Shown here one piece after another: positions 26,796 to 53,445 of a DNA stretch of 64,000 nt (within the stretch, counting starts at the first letter, position 1; every line of letters starts with the position of its first letter). The stretch is taken from NCBI GenBank assembly GCA_973895155.1, contig OZ316893.1:15592645-15656644 (forward strand), in the 5' to 3' direction. This stretch comes from Marsupella aquatica (Eukaryota; Plantae; Marchantiophyta). The notes beneath the pieces are model-generated. The model saw only the letters and a program-made list of their open reading frames with translations, ran no database searches and had not been told where the DNA came from. Made by a program: the position numbers and the translations under genes.

Positions 26796-28517
26796 CTTTG
26801 TACTTATTTTAATGTTACTGGATCATTCCGCCCTATTTAACAAGGGAGTAAGTCCCTAACGCGACTGTTCCCTGGCTGCATTGCCGTGTTTGCGGTCAAA
26901 TCCATTCTAAATACAGACGGAGAACTCCTGCTTGCGGCTCAAGAGACTTCATTGCGTGAACCAGTCTCTTGGAGATACTGCCGCCTCGAGTTGAGCTAGA
27001 TAAACCCTCGATGCCGGTAGCTCCATCATCTTTCCACCACTGGTTGCCAAAAAATCATTGTACTTGGCCTTGCATTGCGTCAATCCCACGATTGCTTACT
27101 TCTGCCCAAAGTTGGCCCAAAACAGCCATATCTTCACGTGGTGAAATGTGGTAATCGAGGCGCTACGGCATTACATGAAAGTAATGTGTGCTTCATCTGA
27201 ACCGGTTACATCTGAGAACTTAGTTTTAGCGGGTGGATGGGGTAACACAGAACTACAGCCGGGGTGGACCACAATGTTTGACAAATGACTTGCATCGACC
27301 ATCGCTGCCCCAGATGGATCATCTCCAAACCAACTCAGCTAGGATCATTTGGGTCTTAAAAGATGCTAGGTCAATATTAGTTGCATAGTAGAAGGCTTTA
27401 GTTCTGCTGTTGTGGAACTCTCAGGCTTTTGGCTCTTGGGCTTTGGCTCTAGAGCACTAATGTACTCTCTTATGTTCCCAAATTTCCATTTCCCTGTTAA
27501 AACAATAATTTTAGCTTCATCAATCCAGTTAATGAGCTAAGATCTCCACTCACCGGAGGTCCATGTACTAACAGACGTTTGGGAACCATCAGATCTTCCT
27601 GGAGTTTAGGAGGGGAGTCAGATCTGGCAAATAGTTCTGTTAGACAGGTCAGTACCTGGCTAAGGAAGGGAGAAAATCTGAAAAAAAAATCTTTGTATTG
27701 GTTGTTTTTTTTGTGAGAATTTGGTGTAAATTAGCCAAAAGAAGAAGGCTGCCGAGCACCCGTCAATCAAATTATTCTTAGAAAAACTGGCTGTTGCTTG
27801 ATCTGGAAACCAAACCCCATGTACATAAACACTTGACAAAAATGCATAGATGGACTAAAAATATATAAAAGTTTTGATGGTACTGATGTAGCATTCTGCC
27901 TTGGGTTAATTGATATATATTTTTTCAAGACGTGTGGTCTGGAATGAAGACTGGACACCAAGTTCAAAGAATGGTCACTCAAGCTAGTATATAACTTGAA
28001 TCAATAGGAAAACTAATGTGGGTGAGGTGGTGACATTTGTATCCCTCTTTCTTTCTATCATAAATGATAGACTGCATGTCACCTTACACTGAAATTTTGA
28101 CATAGAAGTCAAAGGTGATTGACCACCAATTTCAGTTATTAGAATTTGTTGGTCAAGACACTCCCTACCAATTATAATTTCAGCTCCGTGTTCTCTTGTT
28201 CAAACCTTAAAGTAAAACTTGTTCTGATACAGGTCCTTGTAACCAGACTGGCACCTTCCATTGACCCAGGGACTGGGAATGTCATAGAAGCATAAAGTAA
28301 AGTCTACCTTGTCTAGTGCAGCTCCGGGGAGACAACCCAAGCCTGCAGTTATCTATGCTATGCATGTGTTTCATAAGTGCATGTTGCACTTTTCCATATT
28401 TGTCTGTTGCACTTTTCAGTAAGTGCCTATGAAATCATTTATACACTTACACAAATGTTTTGTCAAGTCATAGATTTCTCATACCCAAAATACATGATTC
28501 AATTGAATAAGTGGAGA

Positions 28518-30570: not shown

Positions 30571-32544
30571 GACATCGAGCTGTTCATCGACGTCAGTACT
30601 ATACTCATGAACATCTCTTTGGTCCTCGCCCCTTTCTCCTCGTTCATCTACATTAAATGGCAGTTATATTTTCGATCTACATGCTTCGAACTTGGCAAAC
30701 GCTGTTTTACACGGAGAAGAACGGAGAAGAACTATCGTGGTCGTGACAAGCTCACCAGCACCTTTCTACTATTTTCATGCTTGACACCAGTTTGTTGTTA
30801 CTCGTATCATCTACGGCAACCACTGTCGAAAGGGATTCTGTTCCTCAGTCACGTTCAGTGGGACTCATTCCATCTTCCCAATGGTTGACTCCTCAGACGC
30901 CTTCTCCAAGAGCAATGCAATCTTGCATTCATGACGAACAAGTGCCCAGGAAGGATGTGAAAACAACCGTAAAATGCTTCAGAATGCATTGAGACCGCGC
31001 CATTGCATGGTTTCATGCTATCAATCCTTAGAGTAGTACAAGAGCACCGTACTCGACATTTCGTAGATACGTCCCCGCCCGGCACATTGTCAGGAAGAAG
31101 CTCTTAGGTATATTTGGAAATTCGAGCTAGTACGCTCACGCCTGGAAGTTCAGTCAGTAGAACAATCATTTAGATTCGTCGACCATTACTTCATACAATT
31201 CTTCCTAATGAGATTCCTCCGGTGAATCTCAATCATTCAATACATCATGTGATTCTGCCATTCTGTTACAGTCAATTGCCTCTCAATTGGACGAATGTCG
31301 ATCCATGCTTCTTGGCTTCCTCTGCTCTTGAGCAGTATTGTATATTTCATTAGGAGACTATAGGCCTGGATCCATCACATTCGTTAGGGCAGATCCAGTT
31401 GTTGGCATTTATGGTTTTGCACTCCTTGATGAATGACGTGATTAAATTGGCCTCGAATCTATTAGTCTTCCTAACCTTATCTTCAGATTACAGATGGGTC
31501 GGCGACAGCCATGCTTCAACGGCAATATTCGCATTGCTCTTGGTTTAATTTACGAGTCCCCGTCTATATATGCTATCTGCGAACCATTCGGCACAGTGCA
31601 TGACATCCCGTAGTTCATCAAGAGAGTGATAAGACTTCCTTCCATCCCTACATGAAGACCATTTAACAAAGTTACGTACGAATAGTGGAGAGATTGTGCG
31701 AGGGATGAAATTTGCGTACGAATAGTTGAGATAGTAGAATGTCACAATGCATCCTTAATCAAATTTTGGGCTCATATAACGAACGGATCTTTGATAGGCA
31801 TTTTGGGCTCATATAGAACATTTACTATCAAAGGCAACCTAAGTCTCAGCATGAAGCCGTAATGTTCCAAATGTTACAGTACAGGCCGCTTTCTCTGGTC
31901 TTCAGAGGTGAAACATTGAATGCAGATGTCGGGCTTTTGCCAAGATAAGGAGAGACGGATAGACGGCGGCATAATCTTCCGACCAGAGCGGAAAGTTTGA
32001 AACAATATACTGTCCTGGATGGGATGTTTCATGTTGTTGTCTGGACTTGACTTGCGTTGTTTCCAACGGTCGCCAAGTTCGGACAACAGCACAAAATACG
32101 AATTTATGGGCTGATCGATTTGGCACTGCTTTTAATTCGTCATCAAGAGTTGTGTTACAATTTAGGTGTCCATATAGGAAGTCGGCTGAAGTTAATCTGA
32201 ACATGAACACATCATAAACCCAATTAGATTAAGACATTATATACTCTGCATGTTAGATTTGCTGAAGCAAGTGCACCTCGATTGGAAGTTTGATAGTCGA
32301 TCTGGGAAAATTGATTCAATTACGTCATCGAAAATCCTCTACCAAGGACGCGGTAACGGAAAGCATGCTTGAATGGGGACCGCCTACTATATAAAAATAT
32401 TAAACGTAATTGCCTATCTTGCTTTCAATGCTCATTGGCTCCCATACACAACTAGTAACAATTCTCAGAATTCTTTTTGCCTCAGCAATATATCCAACAA
32501 AGCTAGGATCCGATCCAGAAATCGTCCACTAGTAGAAAACAATG

Positions 32545-33260
32545 TATTTTATGACCGAAACAATGACTATTAATCAGGTCTTTTTAACAAAACAAACACG
32601 CAATTGTTCTCGTCTTTCCAGACACGTCACAACAGACATTTTGGTCACGGTCCTTTTGGACAAATGACGCTAAAAACATGTGGTCATTTCATACTATCCT
32701 AAATGACCGTTTTTATGATATGGTCATAAATGTTGAACGGTCCAAAATGACGACACAAATCACCATCGACGGTCAATTGCCGTTGACCGTCGATGGTCCC
32801 CGTACCCAATCACACAATGACACATGGCAATAAAAAAACAAATAACATTGGTCATTTTGGACTTGTCCAAAATGACGTACATTATATAACAAATCAAATA
32901 GTGACACATGGTTCAAAGAGGATTCACCATTTGGCAATATATTTGGGTCATTTTGGACGTGTCCAAAATGACTACAGTATAAACAAGTCATATTGAGACA
33001 CGTGGTTCAATTGGGAGAAGACACGTAAAGATACACATTAGTCATTAATGACATGTCTTGAATGACATAAAGTGAGTCATAGTGGACTTGTTTATAATGA
33101 CCATGAGAAAGGTCATTATATATGTCATTCTTTGAATCATTTAGTCTATGTCTTTAATGACCAGAGTTGAGTCATATTGGTCACAAAGATAGTTGTGAAT
33201 AATGACCATTACATCAGTCATTCTAGCCAGTCATTTAATCATTCAAGCCAGTCATTCAGA
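32545..33260. repeat. left subterminal repeat region (ATGAC/GTCAT motifs)
   Basis: Many atgac/gtcat motifs in both orientations next to the TIR, typical of CACTA TnpA-binding regions. Confidence 0.8.
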
Positions 33261-33610
33261 CGAAGTATTCAATGATTTGGAGAAATTCAAATTTAAGTGA
33301 TCATGATAGATAAAACTTGATGTCAATCAAAAATCATACATTACAAAACCATTCAATAGAGTTGCTAAATGAAAACTTAAAGAAACATTCGATATATATC
33401 ACAAATCCAATTGATATTCATACAAGATACCTTCATAAGTCTCACGGTAAATATTGAACTCAATGCAAATTTATGAAACAAAATTACATTGACATCAATA
33501 ATATTAGATTGTCAATTGTTACAACCTGACATACCAATCACTCTGCATGTTTATAGAAAAACAGAGTTGTCATTCTATCATGTCTATTGTTTCTTGATAG
33601 AGTGCTATTT

Positions 33611-36600
33611 CTATTGCTTCTTAAGCAATCTAGAGTTCCATAGGGCATTCATCCCTTTCACATCAGATAATTTAGACTGGTTCTCCCCTGAATTGGCAAA
33701 TGGCAATGCCACATCTACAAACACTTCAATCACACGCACTCGCAAGAAAGGGCTTTCAAAATCTGCACAATGAAACTTATCTTCTCCTGGCAGCCCTGTC
33801 ACCTCACCTTCTGCCACTATCATGGAATTGTCCACAACGCTCTTCATCTTCACCAAATCTCCTCTTGCAAACTGTGAACAACACATTTTGTTAAAAATGC
33901 AATAAACAGAAATTGAAAGATAGAAGAACACTCAAATCAAACACACATTTACCTTTGCAACGGGGTTAGGAGACTGCATTGGTTTCTTCTGTGCAGGTGA
34001 TGCATTTGCTGAGGATCCTTTCTTCCTTTTCTTCTTTCCCTTTCTAGTTGATGGAGTGTCATCCTGTTCACTTGGAATGGGAGTTTCTTTTGGCAACTCA
34101 GATGATTCTGGGGTTACATCTGGTGTCAACTGAGTCGACTTATCCTCTGGCAACTGAAAGGCATCTGAAATGGCTTCTTTGGGCAACTTAGATGGCAAAA
34201 GGTTCACTTCCAATTCAGTTTGCTTTAGAGTACTGTTAGCTGTGTCAGTTGGTCTTCCCTGCGATACAGGAGGCTCCCCTAAAGATGCTGTCATAAAACA
34301 CACACAAAAGAAATGCATAAACAAACATGTATACACCAGCAACATATAATCACACTAAAAACATGCAAGAACATTATAAACATGCAATGACATATACACA
34401 TCACAATAATTACATTGAATGGACAGTGTATACATGATAGAGAATTTTACCTTCATTATCGCCTGAAAAAGTAAGAGATCGCTTTCTACTACCTTGTTTG
34501 GTAGTTGTAGTCAACTTACTGTGACTAGGCACAACTGTTGGAACTTGTGCATTACTGGGGTGATGTGCCATCCACGTAGTCATCATGTTTGTCAACTCCC
34601 TCATAGTGCCTTTCAACTCAGCGACATCCAATTTCACAGCCCCAATGGCAGTGATCTCTTCTTTTGAATGTGGGGTCTGTAAATGAACCACAAACCAACA
34701 CAACAGTCTCACTGTCAAACTTACAAACGACACAACACTGGCTCTGTCAAATGGAGAATGATGTACAAATCAAATTGGTATGACAATACTCACAGCTGAT
34801 CCATGTCTGTTTCCTTGCCCCAGTAAGCTAGCACTTTTACCCTCCCCACTTGCCAATGATGGGCTCACCTTTGCTCCCACAAAACTACCAGTCTGACCTT
34901 CTGCACTTGCCAATGATGGGCTCATTGTCACCTTTGGCAATGAACCCTGACTACCATGGTTTTCTTTCAGGTCAGATATACCTGGGCTTGATCCTCTCTT
35001 CTGCTTCTGTTCAAACACACAATGAATGAGAAATCATAGAGTTTGTTTTCATCAAGATTCACAAACAAGACAGAATTGATAGTGAAAATGATAGACAATT
35101 TACCATTCTCTTTGCTGCTGCAGCATGCCCTCCCCTTCCAAAGTGAGAGGTATCTTGCACTCGTGCTCTTTTATCAGTCATCTGTTTACTCAAAGATATC
35201 AATGCTGGACTGGTAAAATGAGATACCAAAGCTGCCCATTTCTTTGGATCAACACCAGATGGCCCAGGTTTGGTTGGATCCTCATTGCAAACTTTCTTCC
35301 AATAAACATGCATTTTATGGCGCTCTCTCTTCAATATGCCACGACAATGACTCTGGAATTTGGTGTTAATAAATTCCCCACCCACATACTCCCACTCAGC
35401 TGCCATGTTATTCCACACTGTGGTTGTATGAACTTGTGGATGATCAGTCCATTTTGGCTTTGATACATCAAAGACTCTGAGTACGTTGCCACGAAGTTCC
35501 TCCAGCCAGTATTGTTTGTTGCCATCAGAATCATCAATATCATTGTCATAAATCTGCATTTCACAGACAATGTCAGATCATAACTCTGGAATTTATGCAG
35601 AGTCCAGGTTTTATACACACAACAACAGAGAGGATCAGATTTGTCTAAATCTACAAACAAGTACAATACTCACTTTAATGTGTTTGGGCACCTCTCCGCA
35701 ATCCCTTCGTTGTTTGGCAGTATTATCAAACTGCTTCTTAGCATGCCTTCGTTCCCTGCGCATCTCAGAGGCCCCTCCTGCAATGCACACACATGCATTC
35801 AATCAAAAAATATGTACATGATTGAAAAGTTGAGAAAATGTACTTGCATATGCATGACGAGCAGATTGTGTATTACCTGAAGATCCTCTGGAATGTAGTA
35901 CATCAGATTGACCTGATCTGCCTTCAGATGCTGATGGAACCACTAAACAAACACACAACACCAAAGCACTTCAATTAATTTCATTTCCAAGTAGAATATC
36001 AACTTCCAAACACACCTGAAAAGTAGAACAGTACAATCCACTCACTTTCATATAAGAGTCCAGTGTCTGGGTCTTTCCAACATCTCACTAGCCCACCTCC
36101 ACCAGGCCCAGACTTCTTAGGACCACGATTTTGTTTCTGTACCTACATCATGGACAACGTAAGCATATCAACATATAATTTGAAAAAGGGACAAGGATCC
36201 CTTCCTATTAGGATGATGAAGTTCAAGCATTACCTGTTGTGCACTCTCTGGTTCTGACCCTCCAATGTCAGAATCCTCAGTGTCATACTCAGAAGGAGAA
36301 CCATAGCCATCATCACCAAACTCTGCCATGTTCACCTTGGTAACTTCTGATAGTCTAGAGCTCCTCCTCTTTGGCAATGTTTCAGTTGAAGTACCTTTCA
36401 CCAAAGCAGGCTTTCCTCTCTCTCGTTGTACATGTGTGGTTGGGCCTCTAAGGAACAAAGCAATCATCAACATACACCAATGCAGATCAAACATACATGC
36501 AAAATGAATCTACAACACCGTAACACTAGTACTTATGTACAGGATCCATACTAGTATGAGACCAATCTGGAATATGAAAACAGAACATGAACCTGACAAC

Positions 36601-36790
36601 TCCATCTACTGAATCAAATTTGCAATAGACATATCAAAACACACGTCAGCTTGCAGTCTGGCCCCAGTCCTAGATCACGCATAATTCTGACATTATGCTC
36701 TATGTTCCGATTTCGGGCCTCCTCATAAGGATTCACAGAATGTGACAACCCTTGCAATCTTCCTTTCACAGGCTGCATTCACCAACTGCA
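33611..36790 (-). CDS. CACTA ORF2 / TnpA-like protein (multi-exon; Ptta/En/Spm Transposase_24-like region, C-terminal Tnp1-like domain); boundaries approximate
   Basis: GT-AG-bounded exons include ~35555-35103 (KWAALVSHFTS...SKQMTDKRARV...HFGRGG), ~35008-34791, ~34677-34450, ~34290-33952 and ~33873-33611 (VAEGEV...H...RVRV...VALPF...KLSDVKGMNALW, stop at 33611). The 5' exons are uncertain. Confidence 0.72.
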
Positions 36791-36876
36791 CAAATGGGTA
36801 AACCATTAGTCTGATTTCATAAATAGTCCATACATGTAGTCCATCTATGGACTTCACACACCTAGCTAAAACCTAT

Positions 36877-39800
36877 TCACTGCTTAGGCCTGCCCTTTCT
36901 TGCAGATCCCTCTGCATCTCTGCCTCTTTTGGGACCAGTACTTGGTCCTGGATTTTCTCTGGACCTACAGGCCTTAGCCAATTCGATGTGTAATTTGGCA
37001 TTGTTTTCCATTGTAGCATGGAAATCAACGTCTGTGTAATCACCTAACACCCTTGTGGACCTGGATTCTTTGTGGAGGATTGTTCTCCATGCTATCCCCT
37101 TCTCATTGGGGTGGAAGAAAACCTGCTCCACTTGCTTTGGGAAAACGTAATCCATTTTCTTGGACACACCCAGTTCTCTATGGAAATTCACCTGCCAAAG
37201 ACCAGACTTGGTATACCTCATACTGGCAGAGGATTTAGGAGTCCATGATGGATCTGCCCATTTCCCTTTGAAAAGAATCACCTCTTTCCTCAAGCTGCCA
37301 TAATTCAGTACCAAGATATCTGTCAAGGCCCCTACATACTGTACAGATTCTTCTATGGTTGCACCAGACCTGTCCACTCGCTTCTCAGTGAATGTAGAAG
37401 CCATCCCAGAATCAAAAGTGCTAAAAGCACCAGAATCACAATCACTCAAACACCCCAAGGATGGAATAGTCCTCCAATGGTGCCCATAGGCTCTACATGC
37501 CCTATACAGTCGTGCCTTCAAACTAGGTGGTGTGGAGTATGCAGATAGTAATGACCGCTCAGACTCTTTCTCAAAATTATGGGTATTGACTAATGTTTGA
37601 AACCATTCCCTGAAAGGTGGCAATTCTTGGCAGTCTACGGGAAATTCCACTGGTTTTCTTCGATTGGCAGGCTTCCTCATCCACTCCTTCCGGAAATCCA
37701 CTCTTTGTTTGGTAACAGTCTCATTGGTAGCATCATATATCCTGCATGGCAACAACAACACTGAAGACATTAGTGCACGATCCACCATGAATATACAAAC
37801 ACAATGGGGCAACATAATTATGATCCATATGCCTAAGGATAGGAGAGTTTCTAGGGTTTATGTACCTGTACCATGGAGCCACTGTCTCTTCATTCTCTAA
37901 TATATAATGATGCATGGCCATCATTTCAGACCAATCCAAAGTTATCGCCTTTGCAGCCCCTTCCAAAACAATGCCTGCAACGCCAGCATCCTCCTCCAAC
38001 TCCCAGGTTCATTTTCCCTCTCCCTTTGCATCAATCATGTATTCAGAAAGAAATCCCAAAGACTCATCTAATACATAGCCTTCAGCCATAGAAGCCTCTG
38101 GACGTGCCTTGTTTCGTACATAACCCTTCAATACCTTCAGGTTCCTCTCTATTGGGTACATCCATCTGCCTGTAACTGGGCCACACAAGTCTAATTCCTC
38201 CACTAGGTGAATCATTAAATGGGTCATGACATCAAAGAAGCTTGGTGGAAAATGGATTTCCAAAATGCAGAGAGTGAATGCAACATCCATCATCAAATTC
38301 TCATACATTGAAGGGTCCCACACCTTCGTACAGATCTGGCGATAGATATTGCTCACCCCAGCTATGGCCAAGCAAACCCCTTCATCAAGTAATCCCATTG
38401 TTGCCAGAGGGAGAATCTGTTGCATGAGTTGGTGGAAATCATGTGATTTCAACCCAGAGAGTTTCTTGGATTTTGTAACACACTTTGCCAAAGAACTTGA
38501 AAAACCAGTGGGCCCTTTCAAGGTCAATAAAACCTCCAAGAACCTTGTTCTTTCCTTCTTGCTCAGGCAATATGGGGCTGGGGGCATCAACAATTTGTCA
38601 TCCTTACGCTTGGGAGCTGGATTGGGTACAAGCCATAGGTGTTGGCGCACCTGTAAGAGCTTCATGTCTTCTCTCACAGAAGGAGTGTCCTTGGTCCCAA
38701 TGATAGTGTGCACAATGTTGTGTGCAAGATTCTTCTCACAGTGCATGGGATCTAGACAATGGTTAATGAGTAGTTTCTGCAATGGACACACAATTCAGAA
38801 ATTAGGGCATTGAATACAACTTTTGGCATCACTGGGCAGTAGTTTGTGCAGTGGACACAATTCAGAAATTAGTGCATTGAATACAACAATTACAAAATCT
38901 GGGCTACAGGAAGTATATGAAGAGAATATATTTCAAAGTCATATGAAGAGATTGCAGAAATTCATTGTAGTAGTATGGAGTCTTACATTCCAATAGGGCA
39001 ACTTGTACAGACCAGTAGCCCTCTTCACTCCATGCACCTTTATGGGGCATTTCTCATCCTCAACCTTGGTTCCTCCCTTCTTCAAATATTCTGTTGTCTC
39101 GTCTCCCCACTTCTTTCTATCAGAGCTTGTCATTCTACACGGTGCAGGTCGACTCTCAATTGCACCATCAAAGTATTGTGCACTATCTGGTCTACTAAAA
39201 AGATGCCTTGCTGCTAACCATCGACGGTGGCCACTGTACTCTAATTTCTGCAAGTGCTTAGAACCACGTGCCACACATTCTGGCCCACAGATGACACATC
39301 CTTTGTATCCAGAGTGTTGTTGTCCAGATATTAAACCATATGCAGGGTAATCATTGATTGTCCACAATAGCACAGCCCTAAGGTTGAAGTGTTGAGACAA
39401 TCCTGGGCGTGGCAATTTGTCAAAGCAGGGCACTCCTTTCTTCCACAACAGCTCCAACTCCTCATAGAATGGGCCCAATATTATGTCTAGCTATTCCTCT
39501 GTTACTAAATCAGGTCCTGGAATCAGCATAGCTAGCATGACAAAGAACTTCTTGGTGGTAAGCCAAGGAGGTAAATTGTAATTCAACAACAGTATTGGCC
39601 AGGTAGACCAAGCTGTGGAATTATTCCCAAAGGGATTCACCCCATCAAGTGCCAACCCAAATCGCACATTCCTTGGTTCAGCTGCAAATTCCCGATCAAT
39701 ATTTGTATCCACATGCTTCCAAGCCTTTGAATCTGCTGCGTGCCGAACCATGTTGTCTGTGCTTCTATTCTCATGATGCCAAGTCATGAGTTTAGATGTA

Positions 39801-40846
39801 CCAGCAGTGGCATACAATCTCTTCAACCTGGGAATTATAGGGAAATACCGCACTACCTTCCTTGCCTGTAATGAATTCCCCACTCTCTTCATCTTGGGCT
39901 GCTGACACACTGAACAGTTTTCTAACTTGGCATTCTCACCCCTAAAGAGCATACAACCTTTCTCACAGACAGGGATTCTCTCATAATCCAAGCCAAGCTT
40001 TCTCAATAGCTGCTTTGCAGCATATAAGTTCTTGGGCAGATTATGCTCTGTAGGCATACCATGCTCCCCCATCAAAGACAACAATGCATTCACTCCTTTG
40101 TTTGAGAATCCATGGCCATGACAGATGTTCAGCAGAAGCAACATGAATGACACAACATCTATTTTGCTGCCTGGGAACAAAGGTTGCATTGCTGCATCTA
40201 AAGATAACTGTGCAGGATCAGTCTCCACAGGAGTTTTGGAGGTTTCAAGGGGGTTTACAGGATGGGCACCTCCTTCACTCTCATCATCCCCAAGTACAAA
40301 ATCCAAGTCAAAACGGTCCTGATCATCTAGCTCATGCTCAGGGGATTCTTCACTGGTTCTCAGCAACGTTTCTTCCAGTAGAGCCCTGATATGTTCTTCG
40401 ACATCTATAGTTGGATGTTCTTGAACATCCACAGTTGGATACTTTGGAACATCTACAAATAAATGTTCTTCAACATCTACAGTTGGCTGTTGTGCACAGG
40501 TTGCCTGCTGAAGGTTTGCTACCCTCAATGCCTCAGGGCCATGTTGTGACATGTAGTCAGCACCCCACTCTTCATCAGAAGAGTCCTGTCCCTCTCCCAC
40601 CCACACTCGACATGCAGGGTACCGACCATGTTTAATAAGGTGCAGTCTAGCAGTATTCCGATTAGTCCTATAATTCTCTTTGCAATTCACACAAGGGCAG
40701 TACATCTTATGGTCCCCACTCTTGTGGCAGGCCTTTTGTTCTCGAACCCACAAAGCATCATCACGATGTTGTACTCTAGCTGGATGGAAGAGCGGCAACT
40801 TTGGAGTTCTACCCACACCTAACGTATTCTGTGGCAATTGTGCCAT
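36877..40846 (-). pseudogene. CACTA TnpD-like transposase (Transposase_21/Tnp2, DUF4218- and DUF4216-like regions) with two in-frame stops
   Basis: CPCVNC, YFPIIPRLKRL, HAADSKAW, LALDGVNPF, YNLPPW, WTINDYPAYG, DPMHCEKN, GLKSHDFH, FPPSFFDVMTHL, RWMYPIER. TAG at 39491-39493 and TGA at 38009-38011 are both followed by in-frame homologous sequence. Introns at ~38987-38781 and ~37866-37743. Confidence 0.93.
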
Positions 40847-41443
40847 GCTAGCTTGATTGAAATTGTATTCAAACTATGATTTTCAAACTGAATCAGAGTG
40901 ACATGCATACAAAATTGGGCCTACCGTCACAGTTGTACAACCGATGCCAACCACAGTCCAATTGCTCAAACCCACAGAGCCCAGTTTCTCAAATCCACTG
41001 TAGTAGGGCACCTTCTCCTTGCATACAAATAGAGCATCACATACAGTGTCATCAGAATGATACTATGAACGTAAATCTCTGTGCCTTCATCATTTCCAGT
41101 ATTTGTTTGCCTAATAGGAATGTGAGTAGACAGGTCTGGAATAAGTAACGTTTGTGACACCAGTGACAAATTTACAAGTGAAGTTTAGACATCAATATGG
41201 AGGAAAGTCACACTCAAAGTACATGCTTGAAAATCAGAATCCTACCCTGGAAAAGATAATAAAGTTGATTTCTCAAAATTAATTGCCTCAATCCGCAATG
41301 CACTGTCGTAGAGTGTGTATACATGAGGAGTTCATCAAACTGCATATAAATAGTCCACATGTTTTAGCACTCTGAAAATTGTTTAAGTCCACGTGAAACC
41401 ATGAAAAAGCTCTATCTCAAGTTTGTGTTCGATCCAGCCTCAA

Positions 41444-42103
41444 TCAAATCCAAGATATGTGGCTCCTAGCAGGAGTGCCTAGTGTAGGGTCAATGTCATG
41501 GTCAGGACAGTAAAACATCCCCTTCTTGGGCTGCCCATGCGCTGAGTGATCCCAAATTGTTCGATCATGGGCAAATCCCCTCTGCTGGATAAACAGCAAG
41601 CAGTCCTTGTGCCATGCCTTAGGACACCTCATGCACTGAACCAAAAAGCCATTAGCCCCATCATTGGGCCCCTGTCCACAAGTAAGACAAATATGGAGTC
41701 CACATGATGTTGTGCTAGGAACCAAACACTGCCGACAGTAAAACCGGGCACAGAGAGGGTTTGGACATTTTCTTACCTCTTCACCAATTTTTCCAGACAC
41801 ATGACACTTAAAGCAAGAATGTTCATCATTCTTGCAATCAACACAAAGCCATTCTCCAACATGGCCATCAGCCAGGGATATAGTTGGGCATAGCCATTGC
41901 TGACCCAAAGGACAGGAAACATTCTTATGGAAATGTCGGTGGCAAGGCCCATCACAAACAATGAGATCCCCTCCCTCATCACAAATCGCACATACATGTG
42001 GACTATTCTGGTTAATCTCAATGTCTGAATATAAGGACAATTGAGGTGCTTGAGAGGATTCACCTCTGCAACGATTCATGGCCTTCTGCTTATTGCGAGC
42101 CAT
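41444..42103 (-). CDS. CACTA cargo: stand-alone EDM2-like multi-PHD zinc-finger protein (219 aa) with H3-tail-like N-terminus
   Basis: accATGG start at 42103 just after a tgcag acceptor. CAICDEGGDLIVCDGPCHRHFH...WLCVDC..HSCFKC...CARFYC...CGLHICLTC...QCMRCPKAWHKDCL...WD...FYCPDHDIDPTLGTPARSHI parallels, from recall, the PHD cluster and following YCxxHEID..L.TPxRxH motif of plant EDM2. Confidence 0.85.
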   Translation of the reverse strand: MARNKQKAMNRCRGESSQAPQLSLYSDIEINQNSPHVCAICDEGGDLIVCDGPCHRHFHKNVSCPLGQQWLCPTISLADGHVGEWLCVDCKNDEHSCFKCHVSGKIGEEVRKCPNPLCARFYCRQCLVPSTTSCGLHICLTCGQGPNDGANGFLVQCMRCPKAWHKDCLLFIQQRGFAHDRTIWDHSAHGQPKKGMFYCPDHDIDPTLGTPARSHISWI

Positions 42104-45100
42104 GGTCCTGCACACTCAGACCTACATCAGATTGTGAAACACGAAGGAATAACAGGGTGCAGCATGACACAAAGGAATGAGGGTGCAGCATAAAATATGA
42201 CATGTAACCACAAGGGTGCAGCATAAACCAATGCTTTATGGATGGCAAAGCATTTAGGGCTGAGCAGAGCCCTAACCTTGGCCTATGATTGGAAGCAATC
42301 ACAAATATTGCAACCTGTATGCCTTCGCTTGCTGTACAGCAGTGCTCGATCACTCACCCTGCCTTTTTAAAATCTGTAAGGGCAACACAGAACAAATAGC
42401 AATTGAGTTTCAGCAAAGCATTCATTTGGCTCTCAGGTTTTAAAATGGACAAACAAACACAACGATGTGCACAACAAAGCACAGAGAGCAACAAAACTCC
42501 AGCAAACTGGGACTCAGGCAAGAGACACGAATTTTAGCAGCAAAATCAAATCAAGATAATTCGGACCTGTAAGTTCAACATGCAGTGCTCACTCACCCTG
42601 CCCTTTTTTAAATCTGTAAAAACCAAGTTTTATTGCGTGCCTTCTACATCTTAAGCTGCTGCACACATCTGTTACAGAACCATAAGTTGCTTTACTCTCA
42701 ACAAGCTAGCTGCTGGTCCACCCACTTTTTCAAACTGCTGGTCCACCCACTTTTTCAAAAGCTGCACCGTACTCTATCTTCGTGCAGTCGTGGCATTACC
42801 GGGCTGCTGTCAGAGACCCTTACAAAGAATTTAAAATTGACCAAGCTGATTTTAGTTTAGTTTCGTCTAGTTTGCAGACCAAAGGAAATAATGTGGCTGT
42901 ATTCATGGAGTTGTATTCATTGCTGTGTATGGATGTTGTGTGAACGTCAGACAGTTAGCTGTAAATTACCATAGTTGAAGAGCAAGGCTTGTACAAAAGC
43001 CACTGAGGAATTCTCTGAGGTGGCACAGCAGTTGGCAAACCATACACAAAACTCTGAAACTTTTTGGCAACAGAATTCTACAGAGTCGTTGCCGGAATCC
43101 AGTGAGGATTCACCATACATGCCTGCACTTCTCTTCAATAAAAAAAAGAGAAAAGAAAAGGGCTATGATACAGAGGGATGTCAAAAGAAGAGTAAGGAAA
43201 CCAATTGATTGAGGAACACAGACAGACTAAGGAAAACATCATACAATGGAAAAATAAGGACTACATTGTAATAATAAGAGATCAAGCTCACCTTGCACCA
43301 CAGAGATTGTCACGAGTCACCTCGCAGTTCCTCGCAGCTTAGGTCCAGGATGACATTTCAATATGGAGGAAAGGAGTTTACTCATTTAAAATAGAGAAGG
43401 AGTGGCATCTACAGGGACTTTGGGAGCACACTCAAAAGGTTCGCGATACATCAGGTTATCTTTCTAGGTCAGACACTGCCAATAGAATTTTGAACACAAC
43501 AAACACAACAAACACTGCCAGATATAGAATTTTGAACACAAGGGTACGGCATCCAGATTTGCCTAAACTCAATCAACTTAATAGCATATTTTTATGTTCA
43601 ATTAGGCAGCACTAAATAGAACAGCCTTTCACGCAGTCAGAATAATTGGCAATAATTGCCAGACGACAACAAGACAACAAACTGAGCTGAACATAGCAGA
43701 CAAAACAAACTGCACTCAATAGTAGACTAATACGGCAAGTAGCAATCAGAAATCAACAGCAGACAGACAGAGGACAACTCGGTCAAAACTCGGGCACTTG
43801 ATTTAGTTGTGGTAAATAGGAGAAAGCTAAGAAACAGAGAGAGAAAAAACCATTTCTTAGCAATTGGATCTGTCTGCGATCTCCGCTGCCTGATTACAAT
43901 CAAGAAGATTTTGCCAAAACAAACGATAAAGCTGAGGTGGAGTCATTCAAAGCCCAAGTCTTGATACTTCGTCAGAAGCATGATCAGTGGAGCGCTCAGC
44001 TACGGAGGCATGGGGTTTTGGAGGACGAAAGGCTTTCGCGGGCAGTGCAGGCAGCCGTTCAGGTTTGGGAAGATTTTGCCAAAACAAACAATAAAGCTTG
44101 AAGATAGTTAAATTTCTTAGGTCTCTGATAGTTAATGGAAGGTCGCAGTGGAGCCAGCATGGGACAGGGAAGGAAATGCAGGCACTTGTGATGCAATAGG
44201 CTACAGAGGGCGAGAAGGTGGACAACCAATTGAAACTCAACAAACTCAAAGAACATGTAGCGAATGGCAATAGAATAGAAGATCAGAGAATATGTAGCAA
44301 ATGGAGAGGGATAGATAGAGAAAAAACATAAGCAGAGAGCTCTGGCACACAGCAACACAGGTCCCAACACAGCACATTGCAAGTCCCAGGCTGGGGTGGA
44401 GCCGGAAGTGGAGAGCACAGAGCAACCAGGCAAATCACAACATGGGCGCCAATGGGAATAAGGTCATACCTCTTTGCAGCTCTTGACCGACCAACAGCTC
44501 CTCACCGACCAGCGCTGCTGCAACTCCTCCCTGATGTAACCTCTTGCAGCTCCCGTAGCTCCTCCCGCAGCTCCGAAGCTCCTCCCGCAGCTCTGCAACT
44601 CCTCCAACAGCTCCGCAGCTCCCGATGTAATACCTCCCGTAGCTGCCACAGCTCCTTCACGAACAGTGAGACTAGTTGCTGTCACTGCCTCCGATCCACG
44701 AGCTTCCACTGTTTTTGCCTTCCACAATGATAGGGGTCCCCAACGCGCGAATGCCTTCCCTTCCCTCCTGCAACTCAAACATGTGCTCGGAAGAGTGTCA
44801 AAACTCCTCCCCTCCCGCAACTCCAACCTGTGCTCCTGCAGGTCTAAATGGTGAGACCAACGCGCGAATGCCTTCCCTTCCCTCCCGCAACTCCAATCTG
44901 TGCTCCCGGGGCAAATGTGCTCGGAAGAGTGTCGCAGCTCATCCCCTCCCGCAAATCCCACCTATGCTCCCAGGGCAAATGTGCTCGCCTTCGTTCCCTG
45001 CGCTTGGTGGAATGGAGCACAAAGCTGCGCAGCCCTAAGCCCTTGCAATGTGCACACAAAGGCATGCCAAGACATAAGCACATATCGCGTTGCCCTCTCG

Positions 45101-46139
45101 ATGTTTGTTGAGGAAAAAGGGCTCCTGTTGGTACGCAAGACCACTTGAGCGGGATAAACCTAATTGCTGGACCCCTAAACCCCGTAAAGGTAAGGTATTT
45201 TGTTGGATGGGGATGGTGGATATTGTGGGTCATTAATTAGGGTTATTTTTTGAGACTAGTTAATAACAATGTAACAAAACCCCCCCATAAGGCCCATAGA
45301 TAATACCAACTAAATAAGTTAATAACAAGGTCGGGACGCCCCCATAAGGCCCTAGGGAAGGCACTGAAGGTAAATAGCTCATAATGTCGCGACACCCCCA
45401 TAAGGTCATGGCTGTTTGTGTAGGTGCCCATAACCCGCCCCTCATTTAAACCTCCTTAATGGGAGGTGAGGGTGTTGTGGATTACATTAGTGTAATTAAC
45501 TATGTACCGGCCATGTTTTTTGGGTGATAGGTTATGTCTGCAAAAAGGACCATATGCATGAACACAATTTTGGACTACCTTATTAGTCTCACCATGACTA
45601 TATGACCTCCAATATGCCAACATTAATGGCTTCCAAGATGACAGCGTGAGTGACCCCACTTTTAGTCATTCATATTGAAGCACTATTTAATTCACAAATG
45701 ACCCAATGAACTCCCTTGTACCTCCAAAGAGAACCCCCCAATAGCCTTTGTAAGGACCACATTTCCAATCATTTGGAACTTCTTACCTGTAGTATGACAA
45801 CCAAAATGACCCTAATTTGAGGTGTTTTCATTAATGACACACCATGAGGGACCTGTCTAATGACCACAAATATGACTATAAAAATGACCCTATATGTAGT
45901 CATTGGCATTAATGACACACCATTATGTGAAAATGACCCAATGAAGAGTACATTACCTCTCGGAGTGCCCCCTTACAATTCATTTGGAATTTAATAGAAT
46001 ATATCCAAATCCAAATATCGGCACAAACATGACATAGTTATATAGAAGGACATAGTCTTCCACTAGTATTGCATTATATATCTCTTGGAGAGACAAAAAC
46101 AATTTTTGTTTGCCGTTTGGATAGGACAGTATGCATGCA

Positions 46140-49100
46140 GGGTACGTGACACTTTTGGCAAATCACTCCAAAGTTGTATGACTTGGGAGTGATTTCCCCA
46201 AAGTTACATTGTGCCTAAAGTAAATGCAAAACACAGCTCCAAAGTGCTACTGGTGCAACTAGTGGTTGGAGAATGGTAAATATAGTATTTTGCACCTAGT
46301 AGAGGGGTTGCGAGCTCTATGTGGGGCCACATGGCACTCTAGGGCCCGCCTCCAACCCTTAGCCCCAAATTGGTCATTCATGCTTGTCTCCAATGACTGC
46401 ACTAGGGACATCTCAAATGACTCAAAGTCCAGTCATTTGCCTTATATGACATCCCATATGACCAATTCAATGACCCTGCTTGTAGTCATTGGCAATTATG
46501 ACACGACTTTGTTAAAAAATGACCCAATGAAGGTCCTAGTACGTGAAGAAAGAGGCCGCTTTAGATTTCTTGTAAAATAGGAATATTCCTATTCCTTTAA
46601 CCAACACACATGTCCACCGTAGAGGGAAGCACCACTACCATGCCCATCCCATTGGTGTTGCACTACCTCGTTGAGGAACTAAACAAATGGCTCCATTTGC
46701 CTTAGGAACATAAGATATTCATGATCCATGTTGGTGCTTTTGGCAAATCACTCCAAAGTTGTATGACTTGGGAGTGATTTCCCCAATGTTGCATCATCCC
46801 TTAAGTAAATGCAAAAACTCACATGAGGTACGGTGCTAATGGTGCAACTAGTGGTTGGAGAATAGTAAATATAGTATTTTGCACATAGTGGAGGGGTTGC
46901 GAGCTCTATGTGGGGCCACATGGGACTCTAGGGCCCACCTTCAGCCCCTAGCCCCAAACTTGTCATTTGTGCTTCTGTTTAATGACTGCATGAAGGGCCA
47001 CACAAATGACCACAAGTCTAGTCACTTGACTTATATGACTTCCCATATGACAGTTTTAATGACTTGACTTTTGGTCATTGGCATTTATGACAAGTCATTG
47101 GTCACATATGACCCAATAAAGGCCCTAGTACCTCCAAAGAGAACCCGCAATTGCAAGGTTGGAATATTCCTCTTCCCTAAACCCGCACCCACACCATACT
47201 GAGAAGCACGATTCCCCTGCCCATTCCATTGGTGCAGCACCACCTCTTGGAGAACCAAAAAACAAGTTTTATTTGCCTTTGGATGTGATGGTGTGCATGC
47301 ATGGACACACTTTTGGCAAATCACTCCAAAGCCATATGACTTGGGAGTGATTTCCCCAAAGGTGCATCATGCCTTAAGTAAACACCAAAACATGTGTCCA
47401 AAGTGTTTATGTTGCAACTAGTGGTTGGACAATGATGAGTATTATAGTGTCCCGCACCCAGTGGAGGGGTTCTCACCTCTATGTGGGGCCCCATCGCACT
47501 CTAGGGCCCACCTCCAGCCCCTAGCCCCAAACTGGTCATTAGTGCTTGTGTTTAATGACTGCATGAGGGACCACACAAATGACCACAAGTCCAGTCACTT
47601 GACTTATATGACAGTCCATGTGACAAATTTAATGACCCTACTTGTAGTCATTGGTATTTATGACGGGCCATTGCTCACATATGACCCAATAAAGGCCCTA
47701 GTATCTCCAAAGAGAGCCAACTTTAGATTCCTTGCAAGGTTGGAATATTCCTCTTCCCTAAACCCGCACCCACACCATACTGAGAAGCACGACTCCCCTG
47801 CCCATTCCATTGGTGCAGCACCACCTCTTGGAGAACCAAAAAACAAGTTTTATTTGCCTTTGGATGTGATGGTGTGCATGCATGGACACACTTTTGGCAA
47901 ATCACTCCAAAGTCATATGACTTGGGAGTGATTTCCCCAAAGGTGCATCATGCCTTAAGTAAACGCCAAAACATGTGTCCAAAGTGCTTATGTTGCAACT
48001 AGTGGTTGGACAATGATGAGTATAGTGTCCCGCACCCAGTGGAGGGGTTCTCACCTCTATGTGGGGCCCAATCGCACTCTAGGGCCCACCTCCAGCCCCT
48101 AGCCCCAAACTGGTCATTAGTGCTTGTGTTTAATGACTGCATGAGGGACCACACAAATGACCACAAGTCCAGTCACTTGACTTATATGACAGTCCATATG
48201 ACAAATTTAATGACCCTAATTGTAGTCATTGGTATTTATGACGGGCCATTGCTCACATATGACCCAATAAAGGCCCTAGTATCTCCAAAGAGAGCCAACT
48301 TTAGATTCCTTGCAAGGTTGGAATATTCCTCTTCCCTAAACCCGCACCCACACCATACTGAGAAGCACGACTCCCTTGCCCATTCCATTGGTGCAACACC
48401 ACCTCTTGGAGAACCAAAAAACAAGTTTTATTTGCCTTTGGATGTGATGGTATGCATGCACGGTGACACTTTTGGCAAATCACTCCAAAGTCATATGACT
48501 TGGGAGTGATTTCCCCAAAGGTGCATCATGCCTTAAGTAAATGCCAAAACATGTGTCCAAAGTGCTTACGTCGCAACTAGTGGTTGGACAATGATGAGTA
48601 TAGTGTCCCGCACCCAGTGGAGGGGTTCTCACCTCTATGTGGGGCCCCATCGCACTCTAGGGCCCACCTCCAACCCCTAGCCCCAAACTGGTCATTAGTG
48701 CTTGTGTTTAATGACTGCATGAGGGACCACACAAATGACCACAAGTCTAGTCACTTGACTTATATGACAGTCCATATGACAAATTTAATGACCCTACTTG
48801 TAGTCATTGGTATTTGTGATGCAAATGTTTTTAGAAATGACCCAATAAAGATTACACTAGCTCCTTGAATGCCCCATCACTATTCATTTGCAAATTAAAA
48901 TATTGCCCATCCAAACATTGGCACAAACATGACACAATTACAACAAAGGATGACAAACTTCCATTGGTATTGCCCTACTTCTTGGAGAGACAAAAAGACT
49001 TCATTTGCCTTTGGATACGATAGTATGCATCTATATATGGTAACACTTCTGGCAAATCACTCCAAAGGTGTATGACTTGAGAGTGATTTCCCCAAAGCTA

Positions 49101-49200
49101 GGTGCATCACGCCTTAAGTAAATGCAAGACATGTGTTCAAATTGCTAATGCCGCAACCAGTGGGAGGACAATGATGAGTATTGTGTCCCGCATTTAGTGG
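46140..49200. repeat. ~578 bp tandem array (5 full units plus a partial one) inside the CACTA right arm
   Basis: ttggcaaatcactccaaag recurs at ~46155, 46740, 47313, 47894, 48472 and 49050. The central units are near-identical, hence the repeated MDNDEY ORFs. Confidence 0.93.
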
Positions 49201-49299
49201 AAGGGTTATCAACTATATCAATGACTCTACAATTATGATCGATGTATGGAATAACTACTGAGTATTTTAATCTTCATATCTCTTGGGTTCTTTAATGAC

Positions 49300-49985
49300 T
49301 CTATAAGTAGTCATTTATGCAATAAGTCCATAATGACTGTATGTTATTGTAAACATTGATATATCATGATTTTTAGATTGACCCTATATTTAGTCATTTA
49401 TGCGACAAGTCCATAATGAGAGTATGTTGTTGTCAACACTGATATATCCTAGTTTCAGTATTGACTATGGAGTTAGTCATTTATGAGAGAAGTCCATATT
49501 AATGACAGTATGTTCTTGTAAATACTGATATGTCCTAATTTCAAGATTGACCCTAGAGTTAGTCATTTATGAAAGAAGTCCATAATGACGGTATGCTATT
49601 GTAAACACTGATATGTCCTAATTTCAAGATTGACCCTAGAGTTAGTCATTTATGAAAGAAGTCCATAATGACGGTATGCTATTGTAAACACTGATATGTC
49701 CTAATTTCAAGATTGACCCTAGAGTTAGTCATTTATGAAAGAAGTCCATAATGACGGTATGCTATTGTAAACACTGATATGTCCTAATTTCAAGATTGAC
49801 CCTAGAGTTAGTCATTTATGAAAGAAGTCCATAATGACGGTATGCTATTGTAAACACTGATATGTCCTAATTTCAAGATTGACCCTAGAGTTAGTCATTT
49901 ATGAAAGAAGTCCATAATGACAGTATGCTATTATAAACACTGATATATTCTCATTTTCAGATTGACCCTATGTTTTGTCATTTAA
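49300..49985. repeat. 83-bp tandem array (about 8 units, central ones identical)
   Basis: cataatgac at 49581, 49664, 49747, 49830 and 49913 (period 83); degenerate flanking units. Confidence 0.93.
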
Positions 49986-52889
49986 CACCGTTGGTTAAAA
50001 TGACGGAAATACATTTTTTGTCATTTATCACCGTTGACCAAAATGACCCAAATAAATTTTTGGTCATTTTAATCATTGTCCAGAGTGACTATAATGGTGC
50101 TAAACATTGATTTATCATTGTTGTTATTAATTGCGTCATTTAAGACATGTGTCTAAATTGACCATTTAGGGAAATTGGGTCATTTTGGTCACATCAGTCA
50201 TTACAAACATTATACAAAATGACGCAAAAGTTAACATTTTGTCATTTCAGTCTATTGGTCATTTTGGACAGTCATTCTCTTGTCATTCTTTTTGTGTCAT
50301 TAGAAATTTTGGTCATTTATTCATCTCCGTCATTGGGTGATTGGTCATAAAGGGCCCTGTTTTCTTCTAGTGGTCAGACACTTGAGCATTCAAGAGAATC
50401 TGGACAGTGTTTGCTCTCCCAGATTCGTTGATCGATAACAATCCATAAAAAGCGATCACTGAGACCATGACATGTGATTCGTAACTTCCTGAGTTCAACT
50501 GCTTTCGATAGGAGTGTGACTGGAATCGATCCCAATACATCCTACGTTGAAACTTTGTGCCTCGACAGAATGGCTTATTTTCTTTCAAAGTGTCACTCGA
50601 TGGGTTTCAAAACACGTTAGCTAACTAGCTTGTCTACAGCATAATGTACTGGGTGTTCTACCTCCTCCTTTGGTCCTGAGCAGCACGAAGTAGTTCCCCT
50701 TTCTGAGGCCATTTGGTAATGATTTGGTGTACCGGTGAAAGAAGTTTCGGGTGGCTTTACAACAACTTGGGGCAACAGTTCATTTTTTCCAAAGTGTGAG
50801 ATGCAATGTCATGCATTCATATATGGGAACAGGGAACAGGTCACACTTCACTTTACATGAACTTGGGGGCACAATCAAGCAAAACCATATACATATATTA
50901 CTGAACCTAGTTATCTTTCAGTGGGCCCCTTGTGATCCTTTTTTCCTGATGTGTGTATGCTATTTTGTCCAAAACTCAAGCCTTCTCCTGAGGTGGTCTA
51001 AAAAACTGAAGCAAATGACCGGTTATTTTCAGTGAATTGCATTGATTATTTCCGGACCTGACACATTTTGGCATTTTAACTGTAAGAAAATGGCCATCAG
51101 CTTTGCTTGGGATGGGGAAACATTGAACTGCCCCCACCGTCTTGTAAAGCTCCCCTTAGTCCATTGTGTGGTTTGGAAGCTTTTCAACGTGTTTTGTCGC
51201 GACGTGTGGAACAGCGCAAACCACGCCTCAAAGCTTGTATGAGCGCAGTTTTTCTTTTCTTGGATTTGGTATTTTACGGAAGAGCGGTCCAGCACCGGTC
51301 AGCGGACAGAAAGATTTTGAAATGAGCTGTAAGCATCATAGATTCTAGTTGCTCATCAGCGTCGTGTGTGAAATTAGCAGCCAAAGCGAACACTGAGCTC
51401 GAGCTAGATTACATCCTATAATGATAATGACAGTTTGAGAATTGTGAATTGAGAGGACTGTCATCCATGTAATGATATTGACAGTAAGTTTGAGAATTGT
51501 GGTTTGAGAGGTTGAGAATTGTGGTTTGAGAGGACTGTCATCATGGTGCTCAGAAGTTTTTCCAACCGTTCATTTCCATCATATTTAAGCTTATGCCACC
51601 AAAGAGCCAATCGGAGCAGAAAATTGAAGCTAAGTGCGCGTCAGATTTAAACATAAACCATTGATAGATTCCCCAATTTTCTAAAAACTACGCAGCCATA
51701 AACCACAGAACAAATTTACTTTCCACCATGTCTTGTTCAACACGAATTGAAAGTTTATCGAATCTGAATGTTTTGATGTGGGAGACTTTTTGGAGTAAAA
51801 TCTCTGACACTGACCGAGCGGCGACGCACCTGAATTATTGGCAATAATCAATCGGTTATTTAAGAACATCGCTTGGAGAGCCTGTCCCTGTATACATATT
51901 TACCTATGATCTTAATATTGCCACGTTAAACTTAGACCACCATCGGCTACTCCAAACAAATGGTGTTGAATGGTAAACAAAATTGGGTGATTTTACCTAA
52001 AAATGCCCGTTTGAGGGCGATAGGCTGATTTGGCCATAAAACCTTATCAAATTAAGATTTCACGAAAACAGGAGAGCTGTACATGCATCCGTGACAAGTA
52101 TTAACTAAGGCAGAATAATAATAATATTCACCCACGTCAATTACTCGGGCTCTTTCGGTTTCCGAAGGAAAATTATGCTCGGATAAATGAGAACTTGGAG
52201 GGAAGAGTATATATATGTATATGTATGTGATATAAAAACGGACTGCAACGGGACTTTAGCACGGACTTGCATCAAAAGAATATTAGGGAGGTAACTCGGG
52301 AGGTAATCGGAGGAAAGATGATACATCCGCCACAGTCAAACTAATTGGAGGCTCAGTATCTGCATTTAACACAGTATGGTGACTAAATGGCGGGTCGGGG
52401 CGGTTTATATCCAGGATCGAAAAATTTAGCAAATTTAGCACAAATTACCGTAGACACTACCAGATTCTTCTTTCGTCAATGTTCACTTTTAGAACAGACC
52501 CGGGAACAGAATCTTGAGACTTTTGTAGATGAATCTACAGTAGGATTGAAGAATGAAAACACGGTGGTTTCTGGTTGCGATCTCTACTGGGAGTTCGGCT
52601 GCCTGTATCTATTCTTTGACGGCGGCGGTCATTTGTTCTACCTCAGTAGCCCTTCAATAAAACTTTGTTTTCCTGACACACATTCATACCTTTTTTAATC
52701 TCAATGAAACCTAACCAAGATGAAAAGTTAATTAAAGCTTAATTATTAAAAATAGAATTTAAAGAATTGAATATTAGCTTTAAATTTATAAAAAAAACTT
52801 GAATCTAAATAAAATGTATAAAATCTTTAATTGAAAAAAATTAATTAAACTTGGTTATGCTTGGACTCTATGATGCGGTGGTCGTTATC

Positions 52890-53445
52890 TCGCGTCTCCA
52901 ATTTCTATGTGCAATGCACGGGTTATTGAATATTTTCCCAACAATTTTACCTTGCCTTAACATCTTTTTTTCATCTCGTCGTTTTTTCTCGCATTGACAT
53001 CTTTATCTCACCCTCGGCATTTTTCTCTCTTCGATCTTTTACTCATCTTTACATATTTTTCTCACTTTGCCATCTTTTTCACCTCAATATCTTAACTTTC
53101 TCACCTTGACATCTTTATCTCACCCTCGGCATTTTTTCTCTTTTCGATCTTTTACTCATCTTTACATATTTTTGTCACTTTGCCATCTTTTCTCACCTCA
53201 ATATCTTAACTTTGTCTCACCTTGATATGTGTATCTCACCACAATGTCTTTCCTTCATCTCGATATCTTTTCTCTCCTTGACATCTTTTTTTTGCCTTGA
53301 CATCTTTTTCTCTCATGACCTCTTTTTTTCATCGACTTCTTTTCCTCACCTAGACATTCTTTCTCTCATTGACATCTTTCTCACCTTGACATCTTTTTGT
53401 CACCTCAACATCTCTTATGCAACACACAGTCAATCATAGGGCTAG
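52890..53445 (+). repeat. pyrimidine-rich tandem repeats (ctcaccttgacatctttt) with Helitron-like 3' signals
   Basis: ~112-bp duplication at ~52994/53106; gtgcaatgcacggg hairpin-like motif at ~52909; terminal CTAG|T at 53442-53446. Confidence 0.35.

Follow-up and report, generated by a model that had tools for sequence, protein, structure and literature searches.

An EDM2-clan PHD cluster with a candidate histone-mimic tail as cargo of a CACTA transposon in Marsupella aquatica

What use could a DNA transposon make of a histone-reader-type protein encoded between its own ends? This question is raised by a 64,000-nucleotide stretch of the Marsupella aquatica genome (contig OZ316893.1; hereafter the window), in which an intact open reading frame (ORF) for a protein with PHD-type zinc fingers lies inside a CACTA element. 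In the original prediction, it was regarded as a captured EDM2-like chromatin reader. In our opinion, this intact and selected ORF may serve the element as a chromatin adaptor or decoy aiding its activity in heterochromatin, and the probability of this reading, judged from sequence comparisons, can be put at about 0.4.

The CACTA element and selection on its PHD ORF

The element is assigned to the CACTA/En-Spm type by its CACTA terminal inverted repeats (TIRs), 3-bp target-site duplication, subterminal repeats and Tnp2/TnpD transposase. One of its ends is CACTAGTAGAAAACA at 32527, and the inverted counterpart of this sequence finishes at 50372. Its main parts are as follows.

32527..50372, minus strand: full-length CACTA (En/Spm) element, 17,846 bp, with CACTA-starting inverted ends and a GTC duplication
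32524-32526 and 50373-50375: GTC target-site duplication (3 bp) on both flanks of the element
50344..50372, minus strand: 5' TIR, 14 of its first 15 bases equal to those of the opposite end, with another match of 9 bp deeper in the repeat
32527..32555, plus strand: 3' TIR, from comparison of the inverted ends
45692..50340, no strand assigned: 5' subterminal repeats (tandem units of about 578 bp, an array of eight 83-bp units), ATGAC/GTCAT-rich
32556..33300, no strand assigned: 3' subterminal ATGAC/GTCAT-rich repeats, inner edge approximate
41444..42103, minus strand: stand-alone, intronless ORF of the EDM2/NSD type with three zinc fingers, 219 amino acids (aa), P0001, from open translation, Pfam, PDB and alignment
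42108..42109, minus strand: candidate splice acceptor 4 nt ahead of the ATG of the PHD ORF, predicted from a reading of the sequence
36877..40846, minus strand: TnpD-type (Tnp2) transposase, ATG at 40846
33611..36329, minus strand: nine-exon ORF of 615 aa, open under predicted splicing and TnpA-like by position

Three ORFs of the element, namely the PHD ORF, the transposase and the nine-exon ORF, are located on the same strand, and about 600 bp separate the stop of the PHD ORF from the transposase ATG downstream. Translation of the minus strand meets no internal stop, the product contains 22 Cys and 14 His, and the predicted presence of an intronless Cys/His-rich ORF of 219 aa within CACTA TIRs, upstream of the transposase and in its orientation, was confirmed by translation, by the element ends and by Pfam. 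The transposase matches Transpos_assoc, Transposase_21, DUF4218 and DUF4216; PF02992 and PF13960 exceed the Pfam cut-off, and Transpos_assoc and DUF4216 are under it. With two predicted introns (38986-38777 and a second that starts at 37865 and finishes near 37742 or 37703), its frame is about 1200 codons long and is interrupted by exactly two stops, as had been predicted, at codons 452 and 876 (39493-39491 and 38011-38009), the second of which (row 38011) is a sense codon in the contigs of four out of four public runs. No significant Pfam match was obtained with the scanned exons of the nine-exon ORF.

The contrast between an open PHD ORF and a broken transposase was originally taken as a sign of function, and we reject it as evidence. 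By simple arithmetic, two stops in about 1200 codons correspond to some 0.37 expected in a frame of 219, which would remain open with a chance of about 70%; the contrast is weakened further by the third ORF of the element, which is open too. Evidence for the function of the PHD ORF comes from its other copies.

Sister copies were taken from contigs assembled from public runs, ten of which contain part of the region and two at least half of its words. All 30 bins of 32300-46000 were covered in four of four runs from three studies, and run X9 was omitted with 7 of 30 bins covered. Run X2 is not independent, since it has the same insertion flank without any difference. One contig of run X1, with a depth of 701, spans 41006-42205, that is, the PHD ORF and both of its flanks. 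Contig-depth ratios of about 30 (X1), 110 (X4) and 2.5 (X5), which are not copy numbers, suggest many copies.

The contigs contained 38 variant rows at 5% of depth or more, rarer variants being dropped by the contigs; 34 rows were within the PHD ORF, and the 4 outside it, including the sole indel row, were dropped. Among the 34 variants, 19 were synonymous (8.9 expected) and 15 nonsynonymous, with no stops and no changes of zinc ligands, which gives an omega of about 0.28 (p=2.2e-4, transitions and transversions being counted apart). The PHD ORF is under purifying selection across the copies. The search for sister copies with dN/dS below 1, proposed with the original prediction, has therefore found both, and a one-off neutral capture, which would have spoken against that prediction, is contradicted by the shared copies and the selection on them.

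The window copy itself differs from the X1 majority at 7 positions, 2 synonymous and 5 nonsynonymous, as is expected of a dead copy that drifts, and it has probably been dead and drifting since insertion. Intronless copies of the PHD ORF with stops or a frameshift were also found at three metagenome loci (L001-L003, out of 184 pattern matches), from which P0001 is separated by saturated synonymous sites and a dN of 0.48–0.58. Their flanks, on contigs of 1.1–1.9 kb that are too short to decide, showed no match to the transposase of the CACTA element, and seven frames in them gave no Pfam match. Decayed copies without introns, scattered in this way, agree with a transposon gene, the transposon context being shown for near copies only.

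These private changes of the window copy, together with the stops or frameshift of L001-L003, are what a neutral passenger fragment of the Pack-CACTA type would leave. However, decay of single copies is expected of any transposon gene, and this reading is largely refuted by the omega among the copies, by saturated dS with conserved ligands and by a start and a stop conserved across relatives of 41–82% identity; it hardly deserves further credit. As the PHD ORF was selected at the level of the element until dS became saturated, it most likely serves the element.

Concerning expression, candidate acceptors were also read, as a prediction, directly ahead of the transposase ATG, and the ORFs might perhaps be expressed via alternative splice acceptors from one 5' promoter. 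Production of TnpD and TnpA of Spm3 by alternative splicing from one promoter is described in the accessible part of a preprint (bioRxiv 2026.08.24.746577). Upstream of the PHD ORF there are two near-identical units of 17–18 nt (42357-42374 and 42596-42613, minus strand), bounded by AG and GTGAGT like duplicated leader mini-exons. A GC-rich block of short repeats at 44500-45050, near the 5' end of the element, resembles the first exon of maize Spm, which is likewise GC-rich; the 165-aa frame of this block had no Pfam match. The observed/expected ratio of CpG is 0.19–0.27 in 2-kb bins of 34001-42000 and 46001-50000 and 0.35–0.95 outside the element, and CHG is depleted (0.40–0.51) in the 5' repeats; such depletion is a sign of long methylation.

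Elsewhere in the window, a Copia LTR retrotransposon (about 13700-19311) has gag/pol in three ORFs and LTR stretches 99% identical over 300 bp, by which its insertion is recent. The window also contains a pair of dispersed repeats (2890-3532 and 21357-22010, 85–91% identical), nested inverted repeats, possibly MITE-like (23995-24758 and 19958-20093), a G-rich block of degenerate repeats (26000-27000) and a T-rich degenerate 19-bp array (52948-53416).

The PHD cluster, its family and its relation to EDM2

The following parts were distinguished in P0001.

42074..42100, minus strand: H3-like N-terminal tail, residues 2-10, predicted disordered
41834..41992, minus strand: PHD1 (C38-C90), with a long His-Cys spacer like that of EDM2, acidic overall, without an acidic residue directly before C1
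41693..41815, minus strand: PHD2 (C97-H137), with Cys123 at the position of an EDM2 His and a loop of about 20 residues deleted
41498..41689, minus strand: third finger (C139-H202), from Pfam and alignment
41447..41512, minus strand: C-terminal YC..H...TP.R.H motif of the EDM2 clan, finishing in the family-wide H-I-S-W-[IL]

In Pfam, P0001 matched PHD_NSD (E 2.3e-8) and PHDvar_NSD (E 2.3e-7), both above the cut-off, and its best PDB match was the PHD1-3 region of NSD3 (E 9.2e-11), that of NSD2 being matched as well. Two AlphaFold models of moderate quality (pLDDT 58.5 and 65.3) led in Foldseek to generic PHD/PZP and NSD PHD-C5HCH folds alone, and an Atlas query with P0001 gave, as a lead only, a streptophyte PHD_NSD cluster at 0.90. 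According to the accessible text of PMC3776765, the EDM2/NSD clan of atypical PHD fingers is recognised by His as the last ligand of the C-terminal unit. P0001 has tandem atypical fingers with this His, the exception being one PHD2 ligand, which is Cys and not His. The concern that its best matches might be unrelated PHD proteins is removed by Pfam, alignment and tree, all of which place the cluster in the EDM2/NSD type.

The predicted trailing motif YC..H.ID..L.TP.R.H was found and aligns to Arabidopsis EDM2 (P0171, EDM2_ARATH), with which P0001 shares 29% identity over 214 columns (E 1.7e-25), the order of the three fingers and the long His-Cys spacer of PHD1. EDM2 has 1297 aa with an RFD and a methyltransferase-like (ELP) part, whereas P0001, bounded by its own start and stop, has neither; absence of the methyltransferase-like part had been foreseen, and that of the RFD is added here. 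P0001 also differs from EDM2 by the lack of the acidic residue before C1, the His-to-Cys change and loop deletion in PHD2, the H3-like tail and its location on a transposon.

Among 18 relatives compared, the best-scoring was the Marchantia protein MPTK1_1g03210 (P0025; 34%, E 6.6e-39), and a Riccia protein (P0026) with a similarly C-terminal PHD cluster likewise outscores EDM2 against P0001. This bryophyte paralogue shares CDGPC.R.FH, LVQC.RCPKAWH and IW.H with P0001 and has no RFD match; it is, however, a host protein of about 700–770 aa with the PHD cluster at its C-terminal end, which keeps FYH and the long PHD2 loop. The EDM2-like identity originally proposed is therefore to be narrowed: membership in the EDM2/NSD PHD clan stands, and the nearest host proteins are the bryophyte paralogue, not EDM2 proper. 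The long relatives among the matches listed include named EDM2 proteins, and many of them have an N-terminal RFD.

About 23 stand-alone relatives were recognised among the matches listed, forming one family with 41–82% identity to P0001 where measured. A single-sequence search gave 3 family members (82, 71 and 52% identity) among 9 candidates; in a profile search, 13 of 241 candidates were stand-alone, namely 12 family members (41–82%) and one EDM2-like protein. A HMMER search had 664 matches, the best 150 of which were listed, with more short family members at the top. A word-based search for longer forms (0 of 72) reflects a limit of sensitivity, as the HMMER search later found them. No relatives were detected in viral contigs (0 of 29 stretches scanned) or genome contigs (0 of 5). 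Complete members have about 213–245 aa, and most end in H-I-S-W-[IL].

In a tree of 46 rows, from which P0021 and P0029 were omitted for want of an anchor, the 13 family rows formed one clade (100/100) on a long branch adjoining the bryophyte-type paralogue group; a quick tree of 24 rows drew the family to a long NSD-like row. Grouping with seed-plant EDM2 was marginally rejected (p-AU 0.047), and grouping with the bryophyte paralogue was not (p-AU 0.42), a sister position to the latter being a possibility. On alignments and trees, P0001 is a member of the EDM2 clan and no fragment of EDM2. The donor was probably a gene of the bryophyte-type paralogue, the tree itself not fixing it. The PHD cluster would have been captured once, in the distant past, from a host gene of the EDM2 clan, most likely of this type, and later trimmed, remodelled in PHD2 and provided with the tail. 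Judging from these relatives, the ORF is probably an old transposon cargo kept across the family, its element context being observed for the near copies.

Some other short proteins were noticed. P0050, a stand-alone protein of 280 aa from the bryophyte paralogue group, has an ancestral PHD2 and an internal P-R-P-K-M-K-A-S-K like the family tail and is a possible intermediate. P0015 and P0018 represent a further short protein with EDM2-like PHD fingers and no methyltransferase-like part; its branch, within the bryophyte-type group, is long. P0056, P0060 and P0068 (320–386 aa) form a separate clade of EDM2-derived PHD proteins beside true EDM2, start with M-A-R-x-K and may have acquired the same architecture separately.

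The fingers of the family have been remodelled. The acidic residue before C1 (FESVC/FDSVC in EDM2, EDEC in AIRE) is absent in 22 of the 22 members with that region, where the sequence up to the first Cys of PHD1 has become SPHVC or AAHVC; H3 reading of the canonical kind may have been changed or abolished for this reason. PHD2 is about 20 residues shorter and has YC in place of YH (strict pattern in 17 of 23 family proteins and in none of 97 long relatives, among the matches listed). PHD1 has a net charge of -4 to -9 in all 12 members examined. Binding of H3K9me2 by EDM2 is reported in the accessible parts of PMC7472560 and PMC9910501; with the start of PHD1 and PHD2 so changed, it is not to be assumed for P0001, and its transfer to the transposon protein, as originally suggested, is not supported.

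Comparison with EDM2 also bears on the idea that P0001 acts in, or competes with, the ASI1-AIPP1-EDM2 complex and favours read-through past early poly(A) sites, the transposase and the nine-exon ORF being made from a long heterochromatic transcript. The role of EDM2 in distal polyadenylation (PMC7472560, PMC9910501, PMC7529245, in their accessible parts) and the three same-strand ORFs with candidate acceptors directly before the PHD and transposase ATGs agree with it. On the other hand, P0001 has neither the RFD nor the methyltransferase-like part, is probably outside the EDM2 orthologue group and, in the Pfam scan, matched PHD-type families only with no RNA-binding domain. We consider such action improbable.

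The H3-like N-terminus and possible modes of action

P0001 has one more peculiarity, which escaped the original prediction. According to the accessible text of PMC8166343, H3 N-terminal mimics are defined by iM-[AGSCTPV]-R-x-K, a motif present in 48 of 20,996 human proteins. P0001 starts with M-A-R-N-K, in agreement with this definition, and is identical to H3 residues 1-9 at 5 of 9 positions (7 of 9 in P0002). As a background, the motif occurs in 3 of 1729 ATG-started open decapeptides of the window. In the 23 family proteins among the matches listed, it is placed right after Met in 11 (for two of these, P0007 and P0033, this is a Met inside the protein as called), two residues later in 6 and 6–7 residues in in 2; it is missing in 4. 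Among the same matches, none of the 97 long relatives starts with it. The form right after Met is present in several subclades.

The consensus of the family tail is A-R-x-K-x-K-[AS]-x-[KR], followed by a linker variable in length and sequence; pairwise identity is 57% in the tail against 7% in the next nine residues, tail positions 1, 2 and 4 being conserved partly through anchoring on them and family members not being independent. Position 7 is Ala or Ser in 17 of 17 tails. The tail is an imperfect H3 mimic: 14 of 17 tails have Lys at position 6, which is Thr in H3, and only 8 of the 17 retain Lys9. The two extra residues of six members would block a free Ala1. In both AlphaFold models, the tail is disordered with no fold-back. 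The 23 residues of the P0002 tail had no match in the PDB at E 10, as is expected for so short a query.

According to the reading that we prefer, that of a chromatin adaptor or decoy, removal of Met is predicted to expose a free Ala1-Arg2-x-Lys4 end like that of H3. The acidic PHD1 would bind a histone-type tail, the H3-like N-terminus would lure host readers or writers of H3K4/H3K9, and the protein would probably keep the CACTA element active in heterochromatin. A more specific version, in which an old plant CACTA lineage encodes a histone-mimic effector composed of an H3-tail decoy and a captured, remodelled EDM2-clan PHD cluster, is held by us only tentatively; such an effector would dock on chromatin, where the H3K4/H3K9 enzymes and readers of the host would meet a false H3 tail.

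The same data can be read more simply, P0001 being a plain transposon-borne reader with a basic N-terminus for nuclear import or DNA contact that resembles H3 by chance. Lys at position 6, the retention of Lys9 in 8 of 17 tails and the two-residue extension in six members are in line with this, as are three unrelated short EDM2-type proteins that begin with M-A-R-x-K too, in long basic helices. However, the motif stays at Met+0 or Met+2 in the different subclades in spite of a variable linker, Ala/Ser7 is invariable, and the classical NLS pattern K-[KR]-x-[KR] was found in only 1 of 13 tails. A chance resemblance of this kind seems unlikely to us.

Chromodomains tether chromovirus integrases, and P0001 could likewise join the TnpD/TnpA transposition complex to nucleosomes bearing a given mark. 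The reader fold, selection at the level of the element and the position of the ORF, immediately ahead of the transposase and in the same orientation, would suit a target-site tether. No transposase-binding feature was seen in P0001, though, and the H3-like tail is left without an obvious role, which makes tethering a rather poor explanation.

Finally, the tail might be a ligand of its own PHD1, intramolecular or head-to-tail, and autoinhibition or oligomers would then be switched by modification of the tail. A basic tail and an acidic PHD1 are indeed combined in one chain and connected by a flexible linker of 28–41 residues from motif to PHD1. The disordered tail of the AlphaFold models argues against such binding, yet weakly, since the alignments were shallow. 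We think it very unlikely. The adaptor or decoy remains, in our opinion, the reading to be preferred.

Place among known systems and significance

Transposons that repurpose host chromatin proteins are already a known kind. A captured MAIN-like chromatin protein is the likely origin of VANC (PMC13547354, accessible part), and, according to the available portion of bioRxiv 2026.08.24.746577, activation of elements by Spm TnpA leaves H3K9 methylation in place. The PHD ORF shares with VANC of VANDAL elements and with Spm TnpA the position of a transposon accessory gene and, as far as predicted, a role in chromatin. VANC and TnpA recognise DNA motifs and cause hypomethylation, whereas P0001 matched PHD-type Pfam families alone.

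As described in the accessible text of PMC8166343, VRK1, BCL11B and PCLAF are H3 mimics with an iM-Z-R-x-K start like that of P0001, and H3-mimic peptides bind PHD and Tudor readers once Lys4 is methylated. These three are human host proteins, none of them described in that text as transposon-encoded, whereas P0001 is transposon-borne. In Pack-CACTA capture (PMC13317346, accessible part), host-derived sequence is found within CACTA ends, as here; in contrast to Pack-CACTA fragments, the PHD ORF is a whole selected ORF in a transposase-encoding element, with deep conservation in its family.

No report of a CACTA-borne EDM2-type PHD or of a transposon-encoded H3-tail mimic was found in the accessible literature, subscription journals and Repbase being outside the search. 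The term "PHD" is absent from the main text of a 2026 review on capture (PMC13317346) and of an atlas of Arabidopsis TE products (PMC13547354). Various accessory domains are described in a preprint that compares 962 Spm protein structures, and the accessible main text contains none of the words "PHD", "zinc", "finger" and "moss"; its supplements may list P0001. An EDM2-clan transposon cargo with a candidate histone-mimic tail is real and selected and, apparently, has not been described.

If the preferred reading is true, this cargo would open a histone-level route of counter-silencing, as opposed to the DNA-motif route of VANC and TnpA. The more specific histone-mimic effector, if real, would be a third kind of anti-silencing system beside these two; histone mimicry, familiar from viruses, would then be employed by a plant DNA transposon. 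P0001 also provides a minimal module of 219 aa for the action of an EDM2-type PHD cluster without the rest of EDM2. Even with the tail as an import signal only, the case would be one of a host domain related to heterochromatin that was captured long ago and has been retained by transposons.
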